A stretch of DNA of 64,000 nucleotides from the NCBI GenBank assembly GCA_963833985.1, contig CAWIAD010000002.1, forward strand, positions 2,528,001 to 2,592,000. Direction: 5' to 3'. The DNA is from an uncultured Planctomycetaceae bacterium (GTDB taxonomy: Bacteria; Planctomycetota; Planctomycetia; Isosphaerales; Isosphaeraceae). The translations under genes were made by a program, and so were the position numbers. The notes under the pieces are model-generated. The model was not told where the DNA came from. It did not search any database and saw only the letters and a list, made by a program, of their open reading frames with translations. Positions 11,606 through 59,528 of this stretch are shown here, piece after piece. Each line of letters starts with the position of its first letter. Within the stretch, counting starts at the first letter, position 1.

Positions 11606-12187
11606 GTGCGACGACCTCGAATCTCAGTCGCCTCGATCCTGGCAATCGTCGCGCTTTCCGCCTTGGATTGCTTCGCCTTCAAATGGGCCTACTCACGGAT
11701 CGCCGCCTCGTTGAACTCCGACGACAAAGCCATCGAGGCGTATTTCGAGGGGATGATATCCGTCGGCCTCATCCCGGTTGGCAACGCTGCCGCGGTGGCC
11801 CTCTCCTTGGCCGCCCACCGGCGTCGGGCGGCTCGGCCTGGCCGTTGCGAAGGGGCGAGCGCCCGGGCCGCCCTCACCTTTGCGCTATGCGCCGCGTTTG
11901 GGATGCTCCTGGTCGTGACGCTCTGGGCAACCGCCCCGAAGTGCCTTCTTGCCTACTTCGGCGTCGTTAGTCGCCCTACCGTATGGCTCGTCACATGGTC
12001 GGGCCTCGTCCGAGTCGCTACGGATGTGGAGAAGCCCCTCTTCCGTTTCGTCATCGATCCGTTGTTCATGGCCTTCACGCTGTCGGGGCCGCTGATTCTC
12101 CTCGCCTGGATCGCGGGTGTGATCGCGCGGGACAAAACGGGACACGGGACAAAACGATGGGACAAAACGGGCCATCATTGGTTTTGA
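11606..12187 (+). CDS. Hypothetical membrane protein; the C-terminal tail is repeat-derived
   Basis: GGAGG RBS; RRPRISVASILAIVAL N-terminus; several hydrophobic segments. Confidence 0.55.
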   Translation: MRRPRISVASILAIVALSALDCFAFKWAYSRIAASLNSDDKAIEAYFEGMISVGLIPVGNAAAVALSLAAHRRRAARPGRCEGASARAALTFALCAAFGMLLVVTLWATAPKCLLAYFGVVSRPTVWLVTWSGLVRVATDVEKPLFRFVIDPLFMAFTLSGPLILLAWIAGVIARDKTGHGTKRWDKTGHHWF

Positions 12188-12344
12188 AGCGGCTGGGTGT
12201 TTCGGCCAAGCTGATTCCATGCCACGAACTGCGCGATCGATCGAGGCGAGAATGGATCGAGCACGTTCTCAAACGAGAGAACCGGCGGGTGCGGAAGGGA
12301 TAAGGAAACGCAACTGACGTTTCTCGATCTGTCCCGTTTTCCTG
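12129..12344 (+). repeat. Dispersed repeat family A, copy 2 (MITE-like, stuttered left end)
   Basis: GGGACAAAACG x3 at 12129-12174; right end TGTCCCGTTTTCC is the inverted complement of AAAACGGGACA. Confidence 0.75.
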
Positions 12345-12571
12345 ACTGATCTCGCGCGGCCGTTGCAAACTCCCGGAAAGTCCGGCGAGAATGCCGTGGC
12401 AACCTGGATGATGCAGGAGGATGGGTATCAGACAACGGGTCCGTGCAGAGGCCGAATACGCCTCGGATGCGAGATCGCAGAGCAGGTCTGCCGGTTTGCT
12501 GTCAACGCGTATCCAGCAGTCGGCGGGTGTTCCCTGGTACCTCGTTCCTGAGCGACCTGGGAGGTAACTCG

Positions 12572-12874: not shown

Positions 12875-14227
12875 GGCGAGCGGCAGGTCTTAGTTTCCCT
12901 GCTGCTCGGTGATTCTCGGTTTGATAGTGATGTCATACTTCGGCAGGGTCGCCGATCTTTCCAATCGAGCTTCGTACTGCTTCATCTCCTTGGCGGCGAC
13001 TCGAACGCCATCGGGATACTCGCCGTGGAGGCGTTTCACGATCGGGTGCCGGCGCTTCCAGGTCATTCGTAGGGCGCATTGCAGGACCACCTTCAGGCAG
13101 TTCAGTAACACGCCGTTCCATTTCTTCTCCAGGGCCGACCAGCAGCGTTCAATCGGGTTGTATTTGCTGTGGTAGGGGGGATAGTACACCAACCGAATCT
13201 CCAACCCCGACCAGTCGGCAAACTGGACCATCCGTTTCAGGAACTGGGTCCGCCGACCGGAGTTCTTGGGGCCGTTGTCCAGATAGATCACCAGGCGCTT
13301 GACATGCCCGAAGCCTGACCGGACCTGCAGCCACCACATGCGGAGCGCATCGGCCCAAGCGTCGCTGGTCTCGCGCGATCCGAACAGGAGCATCAATACC
13401 CCGGTCACCCGCATCACGATGCCGAAAGGGACCAGCTTCTCCTTGGCTGGCGGATCGTGATCCCATCCCTTGGCCACTTGACCGTCGGCGGCGGTCCTGG
13501 TTTTTCCCCCCACGAGCGTAATCGCCCAATCCCACCTTCGCCTTGGTGTCCATGGAGATCTCCAGCGCCTCAGGATCGTCCCGAGCCTGTTGCTGCACCT
13601 CCTTCACGTTGGCGAAGATCGCGTCGGTCTCCTTGGTCTTCTTCAGCGGCCTGCCCTTCTGAATCCGCTTGAGGCGGAAGTTCATGCGGTTGAGGATGTC
13701 CCGCATGGTGCGCTCGCTGGGCAACGCGTCTCGGGGATAGCCCTTGTCAATCAAGGCTCCTCGCACCTCCGCCGCCGACAGGTTCATGTACCGTCGCGAC
13801 GACTTCAGTTCCGGATCGGCGTAGGTATGGGGCTCGACGATCGCACGGATGTCCGCAGCCAGTTGCGGGTCCTTCTCTTCGCTGCGCAGCCGACCTCTCG
13901 CGACGAAATTCTCGAGACAGCGTATCCCTTGACGGGCCTCGTGCAGTCCTTTCAGGACCGTTTCTCGTCCCCAGCCGAAGCGTCGTTCAGCTTGGCGGGC
14001 GCTGCCTTCACAGAGTTCCGTGGCCACCTCGGCCATGAACAATCGGCGCTGGTATCCGGTCAGCCGTCTGGCTCCCGAACAGATCAAGGCGTCGAGGCAC
14101 TCAGTGGATCCTTCCATGACGGTTCCCCTCCCTGGTGTACAGACGGCAACAGGCCAGGCTCTAGCCTTGCATCATCTCACAGAACGGGGAAGCTCAATTC
14201 CGGGTAGATCTCGACGTGCCGGTCGCC
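12875..14227 (-). mobile_element. ISAzo13-family IS, complete (1353 bp)
   Basis: IRs GGCGAGCGGCAGGTC (12875-12889) / GACGTGCCGGTCGCC (14213-14227), 13/15 match; TAA duplicated at 12872-74 and 14228-30. Confidence 0.88.
12890..14117 (-). CDS. ISAzo13 transposase in two frames joined at a G6A5 run (~13501-13511)
   Basis: ISMDTKAKV, DHD, LDNGPKN, YYPPYHSKYNPIERCW. Confidence 0.85.
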
Positions 14228-14417
14228 TAACAGGATTCCCTACACGATGCGCCAGTCGACCTTATGAACCAAGGGGTGCATAAAGAAGGAGGTAAAGCAG
14301 TCAAGGCCACCCGAAAGCAGCCTTTCAGCAGAACCTCCGACTTTGAATGAGACCGTTCTTACACACTGGTCAAGGCAGAGAAAAGGGAGGGAAAACGCGA
14401 AGTTGTTGACCTTGAAG

Positions 14418-16661
14418 CCTACTTTCCGCACATCTCCCTTTGATTTCCCCGAATTCGACCTGAGGCCATCTTCTCAGACGCGGCCCCAGGGTCGGTAAAC
14501 ATCTACAAGTCGATCGGCACGGGGACCTTGTTCGGTTCAGATGGTTCGCCAACCGGACCGTTCCTGAACTCGAGCCATTCTTCGCCTTGTCTTATAACTT
14601 GGCAATGTCCAGCCGCGCGCCGCGATTCTCGCCGCGACGACTTGTGACACGGGCTATGAGCGTAAGTTGAGCGGCTCACAACTTACGTCAAGGCAAATTA
14701 TCATAAGTGAATCACAAGATTTTTTGTCCTTGACGTCCCGATCTCCTCCGCCATCATTGCGGCAAGCCCTGCGGCGGTCGGCCTGCTCCCCTCACGGCCC
14801 TGGAAGGCCCGGCGGCGGACACCGGCCAACTCGCTGCAAACCCTCCGGAGATGATCCGCATGAACGAACCTCAACGACCGCGCCAACCCGGCGAGACGGC
14901 CCGCTCGAAGGGACGCACGCGCACGCTCAACACGCGGCGGATTGCCGCCGTGCCCATCCTGGAACACTTCCTGAGTCGGCTCCGCCTTCGCGAGTTTCTC
15001 TGCGACCACCTGCCCCATGAGGACGGCCGCACTCGGGTCCCCACGGCCACGGCCTTGCTCGTCCTGCTGCGCAACCTGCTGATCTCGCGTGAGCCACTCT
15101 ATGGTGTCGGTGAGTGGGTGGCCCGCCATGAGCCGAAACTGTTCGGGTTGTCCGATGTCCAAGTCGCCGCAATGAACGACGATCGAGTTGGCCGGGCCCT
15201 CGACCGTCTCTTCGACGCCAATCTCTCGGGGTTGGCCCTGAAGGTCGCGGCCCATGCCGTACGCGAATTCGACGTCAGCCTCGACCAGTTACACAACGAC
15301 TCGACCACCATCACTTTCCACGGTGACTACGAGTCGGCGGAGGCGGAGCGAACCCTGCGGGGACAATTGCGGTTGGCGGTGACCTGGGGTCATAACAAAG
15401 ACCACCGCCCCGACCTCAAGCAGCTACTCTACATCCTCACCGTGACCGGCGACGGTGCCGTCCCGGTGCACTTTCGCGTCGAGAGCGGCAACGCCACCGA
15501 CGACCGCTCTCACCAGGAGACCTGGGAGTTGCTCTGTCAACTGACCGGACGCCGAGACTTTCTCTACATCGCCGACTGCAAGCTGGCCACCACCGAGAAC
15601 ATGGCCTATCTGCATCAGCGCGGCGGTCGGTTCCTCAGCGTGCTGCCGCGAACTCGCAGTGAGGACGGTGCCTTCCGCGGCGCCGTACTCCGGGGAGAGA
15701 TCCAGTGGCGATGGACCCACGACAAGTACGACGACAAGGGACAGTTGACCGACCGCTTCTCGATCTGCAAACCTGCGAGCCAGACCACCGAGGGTTACCG
15801 GCTGATCTGGTATCACAGCACACGCAAGGCCGAGTTGGATGCGGAGGTACGGCTGACCCGGCTGGAGAAGGCGTTGAAACGACTGGACGAACTGCGTGCC
15901 AAGCTCGCCTCGTCCCGAACCCGGTACCGCAGTCGAGCCAAGGTCGCCGAGGCGGTCGAGGAGCTGCTCCGAGACTGTGAGGTCACCGAGTGGATCTCGG
16001 TCGAGATCGAGGAGCAGGTCACCGAAAAGTTCCGCCAGGAGCGACGCGGCCGGCCTGGACAGGACACGCGGTACGTCCGAGAGGAGAAGCTCCGTTACTC
16101 GTTGAAGCATCGGATTGAGTTGGAGCGACTGGATGAGGAGGCCCGCTGTGATGGCATTTTCCCGCTGGTGAGCAACGAATCGAAGATGACGGAGCAGGAT
16201 CTGCTCTTGGCCTACAAACAGCAACCGGCCATCGAACGACGGTTCGAGCACCTGAAGACTGACTTCGTGGTAGCGCCTATGTACCTGAAGGAGGTGAGTC
16301 GGATTCAGGCCTTGCTCTGCGTGTACTTCTTCGTGTTGCTGGTCGAGGCGCTGTTGGAGCGAGAACTCCGCCGCGCGATGGAACGAGCGGGAATCGAGAG
16401 CCTGCCACTGTATTCCGAAGGTCGGGCCTGCCGACGCCCGACGGCTCGAAAAGTGATCGACCTGTACGAGGACGTTCAAGAGCATTCCCTGAAGGCTGGG
16501 AAACGCCCTCTTGAGGTGTTCAGCACAGAGTTAACTCGGCTCCAGAAGAGGATCCTGCGCCTGCTGGGGATACCCAAAGCCTACGAGATTTGAGCCTGAC
16601 AGGCCGAAAGACGGCACACGGAAATTAGGAGATAGTCAAGGCGAGATGTGCGGAAAGTAGG
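14418..16661 (+). mobile_element. IS1634-family IS, complete (2244 bp)
   Basis: Perfect 19-bp IR CCTACTTTCCGCACATCTC (14418-36 / 16643-61); 6-bp TSD TTGAAG (14412-17, 16662-67). Confidence 0.92.
14860..16593 (+). CDS. IS1634 transposase
   Basis: NDDRVGRALD, LHNDSTT, GHNKDHRPDLKQ, GNATD, IADCKL, YKQQPAIERRFEHLK. Confidence 0.92.
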   Translation: MNEPQRPRQPGETARSKGRTRTLNTRRIAAVPILEHFLSRLRLREFLCDHLPHEDGRTRVPTATALLVLLRNLLISREPLYGVGEWVARHEPKLFGLSDVQVAAMNDDRVGRALDRLFDANLSGLALKVAAHAVREFDVSLDQLHNDSTTITFHGDYESAEAERTLRGQLRLAVTWGHNKDHRPDLKQLLYILTVTGDGAVPVHFRVESGNATDDRSHQETWELLCQLTGRRDFLYIADCKLATTENMAYLHQRGGRFLSVLPRTRSEDGAFRGAVLRGEIQWRWTHDKYDDKGQLTDRFSICKPASQTTEGYRLIWYHSTRKAELDAEVRLTRLEKALKRLDELRAKLASSRTRYRSRAKVAEAVEELLRDCEVTEWISVEIEEQVTEKFRQERRGRPGQDTRYVREEKLRYSLKHRIELERLDEEARCDGIFPLVSNESKMTEQDLLLAYKQQPAIERRFEHLKTDFVVAPMYLKEVSRIQALLCVYFFVLLVEALLERELRRAMERAGIESLPLYSEGRACRRPTARKVIDLYEDVQEHSLKAGKRPLEVFSTELTRLQKRILRLLGIPKAYEI

Positions 16662-19229: not shown

Positions 19230-19550
19230 CTCCGCCGGTACCGACCGAGTCGATCTCACCGAATCCGAACGGGGCAGAGGGCGACAGTGCCATCCACTCT
19301 GGTTCCCATTAGCCGCGACGCGTAGCTGGTACGGCATCGCTCAGGGATAATCGGTGTCAGCCGTCATGCCGCCATTCTGGCGGCACCCGAACCCATGAAA
19401 ATAGGGCGATCTCAGGCTAAAATGGCCTCGGCCCCTCGCACGGCCTTACGCCGGATTGGAACTGGTGCTTCGAGCCCGCGTGTCAGCCTGGCGGAGGCAT
19501 CGCGCGTACCCGAACCTGTCGCCCGAGGGCGCCGCGTCGTTCGCGGTGCC

Positions 19551-19781
19551 AGGTCCCAAGGTCCAAGGTCACCAAGGTCCAAGGTCAAAAAAAGGACAAG
19601 GTCAAAAAAAAGGACAAGGTCAAAAAAAGGACATGCAATGCAGTTTTCCCCTGGTCGGATGAGGGTCAAAAAGAGGTCAAAAAAAGGAAAGAGGTCAAAA
19701 AAAGGACATGCAATGCAGTTTTCCCCTAAAAAAAGAAAGAAAAAGAAAGGACATGCAATGCAGTTTTCCCCTGGTCGGATG
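19551..19781 (+). repeat. Stuttered A-rich repeats forming the left end of the HUH transposase element
   Basis: AGGTC and AGGTCAAAAAAAGGAC iterations; AAAGGACATGCAATGCAGTTTTCCCCT x3. Confidence 0.85.
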
Positions 19782-19821
19782 GATCTGGTAAGCTGTGCGG
19801 ATCTTGCCAGGAGAATCGAAC

Positions 19822-20858
19822 ATGACGATCGCGCAGTGCGCATCTGGTGGATCCGTCGGTTACCCGCTGGTATCACTGCATCACGCGGTGCGTGCGGCGG
19901 GCGTTCCTGCTGGGGGAGGGCGGTCTCGACCGCAAGGAATGGATCGAACGGCGAGTCCAGGAACTTGCGGAGATCTTCTCGATCGCCGTGGGCGGGTTCG
20001 CCGTCCTCGATAATCACTTACATCTGCTGGTGCGGCTCGACCCGGATGTGGCGGCGGGGTGGGCAGATGAGGAGGTTGTGCGGCGCTGGGGGAGGCTCTT
20101 CCCACCGCGCGACAAGGCACGAAAGGCACTGCCGGTCTCGGACTCGTGGGTCAAGGAACGGCTGAAGGACGTGAAGTGGGTTGCGATGGCACGCCAGCGG
20201 CTGCAAAGCCTGAGCTGGTTCATGAAGTGCCTGAAGGAGCCGCTGTCGCGACTGGCGAACCGCGAGGAGAACACCCGCGGGGCGTTCTTCGAGGGGCGGT
20301 TCCAGAGCGTCGCCATCCTGGACGAGGAATCATTGCTGGCGACCTGCGCTTACATCGATCTGAACCCGGTGGCGGCGGGGATCGCCCAGGTTCCGGAGGC
20401 CAGCCCGCACACGTCCATCAAGCAGCGGGTCGAGCATGTGCAGGAACAGGAGCGCCGCCGAGGATCTGAAGGCCGCGAAGCAAGGCAGCATGGCGGGGTC
20501 GAAGGCGGCGAGTGGGATGGAGGAGCAGCTCTGGCTCTGCCCGATCGAGGACCGCCGGCGGCTCGACTCGATGCGGGAAGGTATGCTCGAGGGGTTCAGC
20601 CTGGGGAACTACCTGCTCCTGGTGGACTACACCGGGCGGGTGTTTCGCGAAGGGAAGGCGATGATCTCGGCGGAGCTGGCCGGGATATTGGAGCGGCTGG
20701 GAAGCAACGCCGAGAACTGGCAGGCACGGCTGCTGAAGCTGGCGGGCGGGCGGCTGCTGGGGAGGTTCTTCGCCGCCAGCCGGGAACGTCTGCGGGATGT
20801 GGCCGGTCGGCTGGGCCGGCATCACCTGGCGAACCTGGGCGGCTGCCCGGCACGGTGA
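19822..20858 (+). CDS. RAYT-like Y1 HUH transposase (apparent frameshifts ~19833 and ~20455)
   Basis: AGGAGA RBS; WYHCITRCVRRAFL, HUH NHLHLL, FFEGRFQS, catalytic YIDLNPV; C-terminus in ORF 20436-20858 (YLLLVDYTGR). Confidence 0.85.
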
Positions 20859-20927
20859 GCCGGGCGAGATGCGCGGCGTGTTGGTCTCAGGTGCTGGTCG
20901 GCCTCACGGCCGAGGTTGGGGGCTGCA

Positions 20928-21077
20928 CCCGTCCGAACCACGTGCTCACGCACGTGGTCACGCGCATGAGCCTGGCGGGATCGCCCAGCCGAGCCACATG
21001 ATCACGTACATAGGTGCCGACCTGAGCGGAAGTGGAGGCCGCGCCCGTCCGAACGACGTGGTCACGCACGTGGTCAC
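20928..21077 (+). repeat. Two 34-bp direct repeats rich in CACGTG
   Basis: 20928-20961 vs 21044-21077, 32/34 identical. Confidence 0.8.
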
Positions 21078-21166
21078 TCACCCCGCGCCAGGCAGATGAC
21101 GAGATCGCGTGGCGAGCCTTTCGCCGACTGTCATTACAGGTTCGTGGATGACCGCGAGAACCATCT

Positions 21167-21530
21167 GGCCACGGTTCCACGAAAGGTGGGCCTCGCGGGG
21201 ACGCTCGACCCACCCTACCGGGCGGCCAATCCCCGGGCCAGTTCGACGCGCATCCGGCCACGGTTCCACGAAAGGTGGGCCTCGCGGGGACGCTCGACCC
21301 ACCCTACCGGGCGGCCAATCCCCGGGCCAGTTCGACGCGCATCCGGCCACGGTTCCACGAAAGGTGGGCCTCGCGGGGACGCTCGACCCACCCTACCGGG
21401 CGGCCAATCCCCGGGCCAGTTCGACGCGCTTCCGGCCACGGTTCCACGAAAGGTGGGCCTCGCGGGAACGCTCGACCCACCCTACCGGGCGGCCAATCCC
21501 CGGGCCAGTTCGACGCGCTTCCGGCCACGG
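21167..21530 (-). repeat. Tandem array of 4 x 89 bp, each unit carrying a GTAG-type REP
   Basis: Units start at 21167, 21256, 21345, 21434; minus strand reads GTAG-GGTGGGTC..GGCCCACC. Confidence 0.92.
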
Positions 21531-21909
21531 GGGCGAGCATGGGATTCGCTTGCTGAGCCGATCAACGGACGCCCTGGGAGCGGGTCAGGTCGTCACAGGC
21601 TTCAATCAGAGTGCTGCGCGGAATGGCTCGCCATGACGTTCACGCATCGGTCGCAGCGCGTCGGGATCTGCGGGTTCTGACCGACGCTGGGCCGATAGTT
21701 CCAGTGCAGGCTAAATTACCCGTCCTCTCTTTCCCCTTGTTCAGCAGCTCGGATATCCGCTCGTGCTGGTCAACTGGCGGATTTGATCGCCCCCCGCGAC
21801 TACCAAGAGAGCGGGCCGTTGTGGAAGGGATAACGCGACGCGACTGACATATCGTCAATGAAGCTTTGTTCTCCTGTTAAATCCAGCACTATGATCTCGC
21901 TTTTAACGT

Positions 21910-22920: not shown

Positions 22921-23705
22921 GTCTTACACCCTCCATCCTGTTTCAGCCGTCCATGGCGGAATTCCGGCCCCGATTTCGACACCATCCGTCCATGTTCCGC
23001 CGTCATGCTGCCCCGAGGTGTTTGTTACACCTATCGATCATCCGGGACGGAATTCCCATCGATTTACCACACAGAGGGCGACAGGGCCATCCAGGTTGGT
23101 TCCCAGTGGCCCGCGACGCGTAGCTGCTCCGGCGTCGCTCAGGCCATCCTTGTCGATGAGCAGGCGTCCGGGCGACCGAGTTCTCCTTCCCTTCCCTTCA
23201 GGACAGGCATCAGGGGGCGGACCGCCGCAAGGGCGAACGGCAACCCGGAATCGGCGCGGTTGCCGGCGTTTCCACCGTAGACTGAATATGACGGGGCAGT
23301 GCGGATGCTCTTTCATAATCCGGTGATGGAAAGGACCAGTGCGCTGCCGCGGCAGCCGGGCAGCGCACTGGATCGGCGGGGCTTTTCGCCGGGCAGCCGG
23401 GCTCGAGAAGGCAGTGAGCAGTCTCAAGAATGGCCGAACGAACCCATTCGAAAAAGGCGACTTAAGTTTATTGATGCGAAGGAGTAAGGTCCGGTGGCTT
23501 CGACCGTGTCATCCTGAGAACGAACCCAAAATCCTCGCGGTGGCCGGCCTGAGCCGGCTCCGGACCCTGGGCCCGGCCGCGGGCAGGGTCTTTCCCGGCA
23601 GCAGGTTGACCATGGGTGAGGCGGCCGCGGAGAATCAGGCTGGTCCGTGATGATCCGCGGCCGTGCCAGAGGCCGAACGTCCCAGAGGCTGGAGAGACCA
23701 CCTCC

Positions 23706-56829: not shown

Positions 56830-57990
56830 CCGAACTCGAAGGGGCAACTCGAAGCAACTCGAAGAACTGGCAACTCGAAGGCAACTCGAAGGGGCCGCCC
56901 ACAGTTCACAACTCGAAAGCAACACGAAGGCAACACGAAGGCGGCAACACGAAGGAACACGAAGGGGCCACCCACAGTACATCAAACGGCGAGCAGGGGC
57001 GCGAAGGGGCCACCCACGGAGGCGAGGAAGCACGAAGGGGCCACCCACCAAGCACGAAGGGGCCACGAAGGGGCCACCCACAGTTCAAGGCTCGAAGCAG
57101 GGAAGGCACTAAGAGGGAGTTCGGAAACTTGGGTGGTCTGGACAGATTTTCTGAATTGAGCAGAATCTTCTCAGGGGAAGGGTAGTCATCGAACAAGGGC
57201 GGAGCCCGATCATGGAGCACGAAGGGGCCACCCACAGTCCATCCAACAGTGTGGGTGGCCCGACTGCACGGGTTTGTGGGTGGCCCGACTGCACGGGTTT
57301 GTGGGTGGCCCCAAGCATGGCCCGGGTTTCAGGGGCTCTTGAACGAGCAGATTGCGGATGAAGTCGGGCTCAACCGCCAGCAGGTCGGCGTGTGGCGGAA
57401 GCGGTGGCGAGATGCCGGAGTCACGAAAGTCACGGGGGAACACGAAGGGAACACAAAGGGGCCACCCACAATTCAAGAGGCACGAAGGGGCCACCCACAG
57501 TGAAGGCGGCGTGGGGCCGTCCGTCGGAGTTCGGTGGCGGAGGTGGCGCCTGGAGGCACGAAGGAGGCACGAAGGGGCCACCCACAATTCAGAGGAGGCA
57601 CGAAGGGGCCACCCACAATTCAGAGGCACGAAGCACGAAGGGGAAGCACGAAGGGGCCGAAGCACGAAGGGGCCACCCACAATTCAAGAGGCACGAAGGG
57701 AGAGGCACGAAGGGGCCACCCACAGTGAGGGCGGCGTGGGGCCGTCCGTCGGAGTTCGGTGGCGGAGGTGGCGCCTGGCTTGTCGTCGTCGAGCCGCTCG
57801 GTGCTGAGCGCAGGTCGGGGAAAAAGGCAGGCCGCACGGTGCCTCACCGGATCAGAGGTTCACCAGACCGGCATCAGGTAGGCTCAGACGAGGATCCGAC
57901 GGAGCCATACTTCCACCAGCATGCCTGGCCGTAGATGCCCGGGTCCGTGGGTGGCCCCAATCATCGGTGGGTGGCCCCAATCATCGGGCT
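56830..57990. repeat. Family B stuttered repeat field, including a ~250-bp MITE-like element at 57706-57960
   Basis: About 10 copies of GAAGGGGCCACCCAC plus many shorter prefixes; inverted GTGGGTGGCCC(C) ends at 57251-57312 and 57947-57978. Confidence 0.85.
57322..57418 (+). pseudogene. HTH fragment of an IS630-like transposase
   Basis: GLLNEQIADEVGLNRQQVGVWRKRW. Confidence 0.55.
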
Positions 57991-58048: not shown

Positions 58049-59528
58049 GAATGCCGCGAAGTTAATTTTAACTAATTGTGCCATTTGATCTTGCGCCATG
58101 GGTGAGGCTCCGGGCATCCTGTGGGAAGTACCAGGACCCACAGTTGCTGGAGGGAGCCCCACCCATGCCGCCTCGCATCATCCCTATTCTCGATCGACTG
58201 CGCCAAGATATCGCCGCGGGATTGTCCCGGGAGACGATCGAAGAAGCCTGCCGCCAGGCGAAACACCGCTGGCGGAATCGCGTTCTCGACCCCGCGACGA
58301 CCATTTATCTGTTCCTTCTCCAGGTCCTTCATGGCAACACGGCCTGTCGCCACGTGGTGCACTTCGGCGCTTGGACCTTCACCGACAGCGCCTACTGCAT
58401 GGCGCGAAAGCGGCTTCCGCTGGCCGTCTTCGACTGGCTCGTGGAGCGGACCGCTGCCGCCGTGCGGACTGCTTCGGATGGCGCGCGGTGGCTCGGGCAC
58501 CGAATCTGGGTCGTCGACAGCTCCAGCTTCTCCATGCCGGACCAACCAGAACTGCAACGTCACTTCGGCCAACCCAGCGGTCAACGCAAGGGCTGTGGCT
58601 TCCCGGTGGCGAAATGGCTGGCCCTCTTCGACGTCACCACCGGCATGCTTCTGCGTTCGAGGACGGCCCCTTTGCGGACCCACGAGATGTCCCAGGTTGG
58701 CCCGATCTCCGACGGCCTGGAGCCGGGAGACATCGTGCTCGGTGACCGCGGATTTTGCTCGTATGCTCATCTGGCGATATTACTGCAACGCGGTCTGCAT
58801 GCGGTTTTCCGCGTGCACCAGCAGCAGATCGTCGATTTCACGCCGGGTCGTCCGATGGCCAGGAGGAAGGGTCCGTACCCCAGGCCGCAGGGTCTGCCGA
58901 GTTCGCGGTGGGTGTTGGCGCAGGGAACCGCAGATCAGATTGTCACATGGTTTAAATCGAAATCCCATCCGAAGTGGATGTCGACGGATGAGTTCGAGGT
59001 GCTGCCCTCCGAGATCACCGTGCGCGAGCTGAGGTACCGGGTCGAGACACCCGGGTATCGGGTGCGCGAAATCACGCTGGTCACGACTCTGTTAGACGCA
59101 TCGACCTACCCGGCGACAGAGCTGGCCGAACTCTACTACAAGAGGTGGAGAGTCGAACTCAATTTTCGTCATATAAAGATTAGCATGAAGATGGATGTTC
59201 TGCGTTGCGAGACAGTCGAAGGGGTTCTCAAAGAGCTGGCGATTTTCAGCCTGGCGTATAACCTGGTAAGATCGGTCATGCTGGAGTCGGCACGCATGCG
59301 CGGCGTTGATCCGGATCGGATCGGCTTGATCGACGCGGTGCGCTGGCTGATCGGGTCCGAAGGGGGTTCTGAGCCCGCGCGGATCGTCATCAACCCATTG
59401 CGCCGTGGACGCGTCGAGCCCCGAGTCGTAAAGCGACGACCAAAACAATACATGCGGATGACTAGGCCCAGATCCGAACTCCGCAAACAGTTGCCAATGA
59501 AGCACTTCTGACTAACTTTGTGGCATTC
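58049..59528 (+). mobile_element. IS4-family IS, complete (1480 bp)
   Basis: IRs GAATGCCGCGAAGTTA / TAACTTTGTGGCATTC (14/16); 11-bp TSD GGGCCACACAC (58038-48, 59529-39). Confidence 0.92.
58165..59511 (+). CDS. IS4 transposase
   Basis: VDSS, LGDRGF, YREK motif YYKRWRVELNFRHIK, EPRVVKRRPK. Confidence 0.92.
   Translation: MPPRIIPILDRLRQDIAAGLSRETIEEACRQAKHRWRNRVLDPATTIYLFLLQVLHGNTACRHVVHFGAWTFTDSAYCMARKRLPLAVFDWLVERTAAAVRTASDGARWLGHRIWVVDSSSFSMPDQPELQRHFGQPSGQRKGCGFPVAKWLALFDVTTGMLLRSRTAPLRTHEMSQVGPISDGLEPGDIVLGDRGFCSYAHLAILLQRGLHAVFRVHQQQIVDFTPGRPMARRKGPYPRPQGLPSSRWVLAQGTADQIVTWFKSKSHPKWMSTDEFEVLPSEITVRELRYRVETPGYRVREITLVTTLLDASTYPATELAELYYKRWRVELNFRHIKISMKMDVLRCETVEGVLKELAIFSLAYNLVRSVMLESARMRGVDPDRIGLIDAVRWLIGSEGGSEPARIVINPLRRGRVEPRVVKRRPKQYMRMTRPRSELRKQLPMKHF

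Follow-up and report, generated by a model that had tools for sequence, protein, structure and literature searches.

Nested restart stacks at the ends of a TIRYT-type Y1 transposon, a likely record of repeated cutting, extension and rejoining

How does a transposon come to carry, in front of its gene, a series of unfinished copies of its own left end? The question is raised by a locus in a 64,000-nucleotide stretch of DNA, here called the window (G000:C2:2528001-2592000), from a genome of 10.16 Mb in two contigs (G000). An earlier note on this DNA quoted restarts of differing length before an HUH transposase gene, and they are present in the sequence as quoted. GGAC anchors stand at 19594 and 19612, and full cores (GGACATGCA) at 19629, 19704 and 19749. 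The units end after a few bases, after 33 nt (from 19629) or after 24 nt (from 19704), and the last one enters the gene (Table 1). The locus comprises the gene and left end of a Y1 (HUH) transposon of the TIRYT type, which is present in multiple copies, and we infer that the transposon's stack was probably built by repeated cycles of nicking, extension and rejoining by its own Y1 enzyme.

Table 1. Positions of the features discussed, counted from the first letter of the window.
Feature	Position	Strand	Remarks
Non-autonomous short element derived from another Y1 element; carries a restart stack of its own (12129-12174)	12129..12345	+	78% over 144 nt to gene G000:C2:6400696
Upstream-flank repeat of about 200 nt, present in related genomes, starting with a GATAATCGGTGTCAG end	19341..19543	+	End resembles that of a second Y1 family; element lies at the repeat's edge
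Nested-restart stack, element's left end; locus-specific leader AGGTC plus A-run	19551..19748	+	First 126 nt confirmed by run X1 contig
Innermost end core GGACATGCA	19749..19757	+	97-98 nt before query anchor 19847 in sister copies; without hairpin
Y1/HUH transposase gene, TnpA-Y1 subclass 2.3 type	19822..20858	+	NHLH, YIDLNP, TS; two frameshifts in assembly, near 19835 and 20455
REP-like hairpin repeats behind gene	20890..21077	+	114 matches of at least 60 nt in genome
TGGATGACC as right end (rejected)	21145..21153	-	Chance: 190 matches of 7/9 in window vs 201 expected
89-nt unit, 4.1 regular tandem copies	21162..21530	+	Fewer copies behind a sister element
Restart stacks on core GGGCCACCCAC	56830..57990	both	End core of paralogous Y1 family

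Part of the stack is confirmed by a separate contig. This Logan contig of run X1, 215 nt long, aligns to 19463-19676 without gaps and with one letter different, and so covers the flank junction as well as the first units. The confirmation reaches to 19676, and 19677-19772 lies outside the contig. Runs X2 and X3 gave scattered pieces only, and X1 gave nothing over a second stack. A sequencing or assembly artefact at the ends of a multi-copy repeat is another conceivable reading, and the assembly does contain indel errors: the earlier note did not mention the two breaks in the gene frame, and the one near 19835 may be an assembly error because its extra base is absent in X1. Moreover, X1 is possibly the source sample itself, with a library type that is not on record. 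Against an artefact stand the X1 match and the distribution of stacks among assemblies and elements, and we consider this reading extremely improbable.

We counted an end as stacked when at least 16 nt of its outer flank were covered by 8-mers of the end. This score was passed by 9 of the 15 left ends of the family in G000, by none of the 72 ends of 36 other TIR-bounded IS copies in the same genome and by 127 of 2000 random places. Equal stuttering at the ends of other IS, an outcome of the kind that the earlier note had said would refute its idea, was not seen. The note had also proposed scoring the flanks of related transposases; among 72 related left ends, 27 pass and 45 fall under 16. Of the loci on long contigs, 16 of 39 have stacks, and so do 6 of the 14 with contig names suggesting short-read assemblers. 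Stacks are also present in a named isolate genome, Singulisphaera sp. GP187 (the isolate record behind L050), which has long runs at two loci, L102 and L109. Assembly error, the other refutation that had been foreseen, is contradicted by this spread over short-read, long-read and isolate assemblies together with the X1 contig. The artefact reading is thus already largely refuted: the pattern is no product of assembly; it is real, widespread and, in this genome, specific to Y1.

Outside the scoring, very large stacks are present in G004, and among gammaproteobacterial records, 8 of 13 of which were inspected by eye, six have short restarts and two have none. The single-contig genome G132 holds 13 copies in two near-identical sets whose end stutters differ and whose cores are directly oriented. 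In these copies (L125-L137), the direct-orientation cores flank the gene on its antisense strand, which suggests one-ended or rolling-circle copies. A low-powered pattern scan across genomes matched 4 of 151; two of these (G000 and G043) encode the protein, and the other two (G051 and G061) give no match to it at E 1e-40 and look like chance, with one match in the reversed-pattern control.

The gene behind the stack is an HUH transposase gene, as the earlier note had said, and of the one-tyrosine (Y1) kind: its PF01797 match (E 1.3e-5) lies above the cut-off. An intact sister copy at G000:C2:194231-195262 encodes 344 aa and has 14 matches in G000 (89-100% identity) and 13 in G132, in keeping with the several copies per genome of TnpA-Y1 subclass 2.3. 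It retrieves 2651 proteins at E 1e-20 among 8000 scored. H67 and Y177 are invariant across 72 sequences, in an alignment that is shallow in diversity. The best structural match of the intact-copy model (pLDDT 87) is E. coli TnpAREP (4er8; E 6.3e-5, Z 12.4, rmsd 2.9, 158 aligned), followed by IS608-type enzymes. The transposase thus has a modelled Y1 core fold with the HuH motif and a catalytic tyrosine, and is predicted to cleave single-stranded DNA by 5'-phosphotyrosine chemistry. By its motifs, the transposase fits subclass 2.3: the length of the intact copy (344 aa), NHLH, YIDLNP and TS agree with Table 1 in PMC6006769, and FE stands in place of WE. Five planctomycete names gave no matches in two supplements of that paper. 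The C-terminal 145 aa matched no named family in Atlas and no PDB sequence; Rfam gave no match, and no promoter or terminator consensus was found.

The end of the element is defined by a short core. Across the family its consensus is GGACA[TGC]GCA. Of 95 loci, 88 yielded a core, which is nearly invariant among them, with core columns conserved in 85-88 of 88. The left end folds no better than shuffles (z 0.39 and 0.72). Behind the gene, an inverted core is present in 42 of 63 related loci with enough DNA, 33 of them at 1220-1340 nt from the match start, at a chance rate of 0.08 per kb and with many of the 63 loci coming from the same few genomes. The family is therefore bounded by terminal inverted repeats, like the TIRtrons described in the available portion of PMC3733652. 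The window copy has no inverted core of its type within 5 kb, and 1 of 16 genome copies has one. The right end that the earlier note had placed at 21145-53 was not borne out, as such matches are no more frequent than expected (Table 1) and homology to sister copies continues beyond it, to about 21580-21617.

The REP-like repeats behind the gene are of another origin than the element ends. A hairpin repeat of about 70 nt (window 20890-20965) also flanks a class-3-like Y1 gene at G000:C2:1859932, with which it may form an enzyme-repeat pair. On the upstream side, an empty site for the 19551 locus was sought in 30 relatives, and only a diverged flank repeat was found. Elsewhere in the window, a solitary GGACAGGCA core at 23180-23215 follows a pyrimidine-rich stutter, the opposite of the usual purine leader; the adjoining 23096-23150 resembles 19300-19345.

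Stacks are not confined to this locus or family, and ends of three other Y1 families in the genome carry them too. The earlier note had seen the same pattern at 12129-12174 and 56830-57730. These stacks are real, but their cores differ and belong to two other Y1 families: the source element of 12129-12345 is of a fourth Y1 family, and the GGGCCACCCAC family includes the genes at G000:C2:551499 and G000:C2:2519187, with about 39% identity to the query. A de novo cluster scan (an 8-mer occurring 4 times within 150 nt at irregular spacing) picked out 100 clusters from the 10.16 Mb genome, whereas a 2 Mb shuffle gave none. Many of the 100 end in one of three cores, two of which bound other Y1 genes with stacks at both their ends.

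Further stacks and repeats were noted in the genome. A Y1 gene of shorter length (243-251 aa; G000:C2:2426966-2428420 and 3098442-3100090) has very large stacks at both inverted ends, in which some inserts are not plain prefixes. At G000:C2:550978-551321, 2518791-2519009 and 2520762-2521185, two sister copies have a common inner stack and different outer stacks; one right end carries two stacks with different leaders, like layered successive events. Miniature elements of 46-100 nt, whose GGACA cores are inverted and which carry a stack on either side, lie at G000:C2:510432-510484, 3035175-3035227, 3032794-3032893 and 5023786-5023831, and two such elements are inside transposase gene copies. 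Irregular purine-rich clusters in which we identified no Y1 core lie at G000:C1:2579636-2579992, C2:740380-741150 and C1:1127628-1127808, and regularly spaced, CRISPR-array-like repeats at G000:C1:682054-689387 and C1:1212558-1217312. Near Y1 ends in the window (13149-16593 and 58078-59511), DDE transposases (ISAzo13-type, DUF4277 plus DDE, IS4) mark an insertion hot spot.

How units begin and end can be read from neighboring cores. We collected 218 adjacent core pairs (right match at least 9 nt, left match at least 3), of which 52 are simple duplications, 152 have extra short units between and 14 are higher-order. After exclusion of left matches under 6, gaps of at least 70 nt and higher-order pairs, the common leader measured 8-13 nt in 61/67, 62/71 and 20/24 pairs of three families; in these counts the filter trims the low tail, a family pattern can catch the ends of a related repeat, L095 and L101 overlap, and pairs of one locus or genome are not independent. 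The first common base is a purine in 59/64, 56/70 and 23/23, which is partly circular because leader positions -8 and -9 are purines in 76-77 of 88 loci. Unit lengths range from 9 to 115 nt across the three families, with one unit of 557 nt. Unit ends show no clear base preference, and no CT preference was found at unit starts or ends.

Purine starts could also mean that synthesis is primed de novo, by a host primase or by tyrosine priming, from a purine about 10 nt outside the core, with the abortive blocks then joined. In their starts and lengths, primers resemble the purine starts and the 8-13 nt offset seen here. The earlier note had offered abortive synthesis as an alternative, and the purine starts fit it. 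The model is also weakly like Thg1 palm domains (Z 5.4), a value inside the background range of the tool (near 5), and neither a polymerase nor a primase domain came up in Pfam, PDB sequence and fold searches. Plain nicking accounts for these data as well, and we judge primed synthesis very unlikely.

Joins between units in the query family show no excess of microhomology, which is zero in 10 of 18 simple duplications (mean 0.61 versus 0.75 by chance), and in simple pairs the overlap at the joins of units 45-557 nt long is 0-2 nt. Both observations argue against replication slippage, or template switching, where bound transposase blocks the end, with the enzyme as roadblock or nicker rather than joiner. 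Slippage of this kind would explain the confinement to Y1 ends. It also gains from the other two families (B and C), where microhomology is above chance (mean 1.94 versus 1.20; 33 pairs, one outlier dropped), an excess that comes mainly from G-run stacks in the overlapping loci L095/L101. The long near-perfect tandem runs at L102 and L109 look like secondary slippage. Replication-strand bias is absent (20/33 on the G-rich strand, at weak skew), which again speaks against it, and overall we find slippage fairly unlikely. The near-perfect runs into which the stacks at L102 and L109 have turned have tandem units of 8-13 nt and stretch over 350 nt; they show one way in which an end stack can become a minisatellite.

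Outer junctions tell where the element joins foreign DNA. An end-free homologue, and with it a filled/empty pair, was available for 28 of the 279 outer ends. Twelve of these junctions are stack-free, and in 11 of the 12 the join to foreign or earlier DNA falls 9-14 nt before the core; four of these are ends of earlier long units. No common target motif was found among the 28 junctions. Target duplication was not detected in 31 two-ended loci, where the longest flank matches are near the null. An automatic search of 51 two-ended elements gave no clean empty sites, and inspection of 19 elements gave one empty site, with a short element replacing 512 bp of target.

The stack contains no repeat of the target at most filled/empty junctions, and near-identical copies bear different outer stacks. 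Both fit a single burst at insertion, in which 5'-linked fragments of the donor end would be added serially to the target 3'-OH. We also asked whether stacks can be collapsed as nested local duplications. Real order exceeded shuffled order in 19/24 stacks (with unequal trials) and in 18/24, and the window stack collapsed partly, leaving 37 of 198 nt. Simulated serial addition passed in 16/24 and simulated local duplication in 20/24, about like the real stacks, and the test does not discriminate the two. At L037, L047 and L068, repeats span the end of the previous unit and its leader. A fixed donor template cannot give such repeats, and local DNA was therefore copied. A serial burst would also need an extra nuclease for the random 3' ends, and we regard it as unlikely.

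A narrow start window, free unit ends and homology-free joins are together the pattern expected from HUH chemistry. In the nick, extend and rejoin cycle that we favor, the enzyme would bind the GGACA-type core and, on the same strand, make a nick 8-13 nt farther out, in most cases ahead of a purine, holding the 5' end as a phosphotyrosine. The freed 3'-OH would be extended by a host polymerase with strand displacement. After one to several hundred nucleotides, the new 3'-OH would attack the phosphotyrosine, fixing a tandem prefix copy. With every cycle the stack would gain one unit and a few bases of the leader would be renewed, giving each locus a stack of its own. If the held 5' end were instead passed to a distant 3'-OH, new insertions, one-ended junctions and adjacent deletions could result. 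The iterative nicking and strand transfer suggested in the earlier note is thus upheld in the link of stacks to Y1 ends, their recurrence in relatives and their geometry; the enzyme's own step is deduced from these. More tentatively, TIRYT enzymes may form a hairpin-free HUH class that nicks at a measured distance from a short core and gives the 5' end to almost any 3'-OH. Such a class might move by 5'-end transfer and strand-displacement copying, without target motif or duplication, and each failed launch would leave one more stack unit.

This matters beyond one locus, as TIRYT and subclass 2.3 enzymes are widespread. The stacks are a natural record of a nick window (8-13 nt, mostly before a purine) and of a joining rule (any 3' base, no homology), and rules read from them make the question testable with a few oligonucleotides. 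As a likely record of repeated cutting, extension and rejoining, they would show how the TIRYT-type class moves. If our reading is true, the cycle of nicking, extension and rejoining that was proposed for BIME growth has left its footprint here in vivo, and it is one origin of irregular repeats and local deletions in the genomes of bacteria. The enzyme would then be of the HUH type and loose in its choice of acceptor, and could serve for joining single-stranded DNA.

The earlier note spoke of an undescribed system. This overstates the case because both the element type (PMC3733652; PMC6006769) and the nick-extend-rejoin model (PMC3333891) are in print, as the available portions of these papers attest. 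We found no published description of nested end stacks in a search of the literature outside subscription journals, whose figures and supplements could still show such flanks; the term TIRYT occurred in two works. Nor did the available portions of PMC3733652, PMC3333891, PMC5581495, PMC8266576 and PMC6006769 give an account of TIRYT or subclass 2.3 ends or mechanism. Neither the stacks nor the rules that they yield appear to have been described before, whereas the element kind and its chemistry are known.

Several known systems share features with this element. Like IS200/IS605 elements (IS608, ISDra2), it uses HUH chemistry and shows no target duplication, but it lacks a subterminal hairpin, a fixed target tetranucleotide and tnpB, has Y---NP rather than Y---Q, and has unlike target ends at its 28 junctions. 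IS91 has variable far ends and one-ended junctions, both of which recur here, and a Y2 enzyme, unlike the Y1 enzyme of this element.

A precedent for the mechanism is TnpAREP. The accessible text of Ton-Hoang et al. (2012, PMC3333891) and Corneloup et al. (2021, PMC8266576) describes a REP hairpin with GTAG, a CT cut, a second cut and a 3' C, units that are whole BIMEs, and REPtrons that are immobile as a unit. Nick-extend-rejoin was proposed there for BIME growth, with the second cut giving the 3'-OH (Fig. 7B legend of PMC3333891). The enzyme studied here has the fold of E. coli TnpAREP (4er8), but its element has neither hairpin nor fixed dinucleotide; its units end at random, and the gene is present in many near-identical copies. 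Its left end has no hairpin or CT preference of the REPtron kind, and NF047646 scores 41 bits against a cut-off of 80 (an N-terminal fragment). In the available part of PMC8266576, characterized Y1 enzymes need a hairpin and a fixed dinucleotide, and TnpAEc also a 3' C on the attacking strand. Without a hairpin or a base preference at unit ends, the enzyme here would therefore have to be much laxer than these, which counts against the cycle that we favor.

By protein, the nearest relative is subclass 2.3, described in the accessible part of Quentin et al. (2018, PMC6006769) with a median of 325 aa, NHYH, WE, YVDLNP and TS motifs, a core insert and a long C-tail; there, no REP-like flanks were found and no ends named. 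Our enzyme likewise has an insert between its HuH and Tyr halves, a long C-tail and many copies per genome, and is 35% identical over 353 columns to a Pseudoalteromonas (gammaproteobacterial) homologue. It differs in an F for the W of the WE motif, in its host, which is planctomycete-like to judge by its relatives, and in ends and stacks, which are defined here.

By ends, the match is to TIRYT/TIRtron elements, Y1 genes framed by terminal inverted repeats rather than REPs (Di Nocera et al. 2013, PMC3733652). In the portion of that paper available to us, the repeats also occur alone, as dimers or in clusters, unrelated TIRs are allowed, and GGGGWSAS is found in some only. Behind the gene, 42 of 63 related loci have an inverted core. 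The core here, GGACA[TGC]GCA, differs from GGGGWSAS, and the window copy is without a right end. Unlike the dimers and clusters reported there, the ends here carry nested prefixes with a fixed restart offset.
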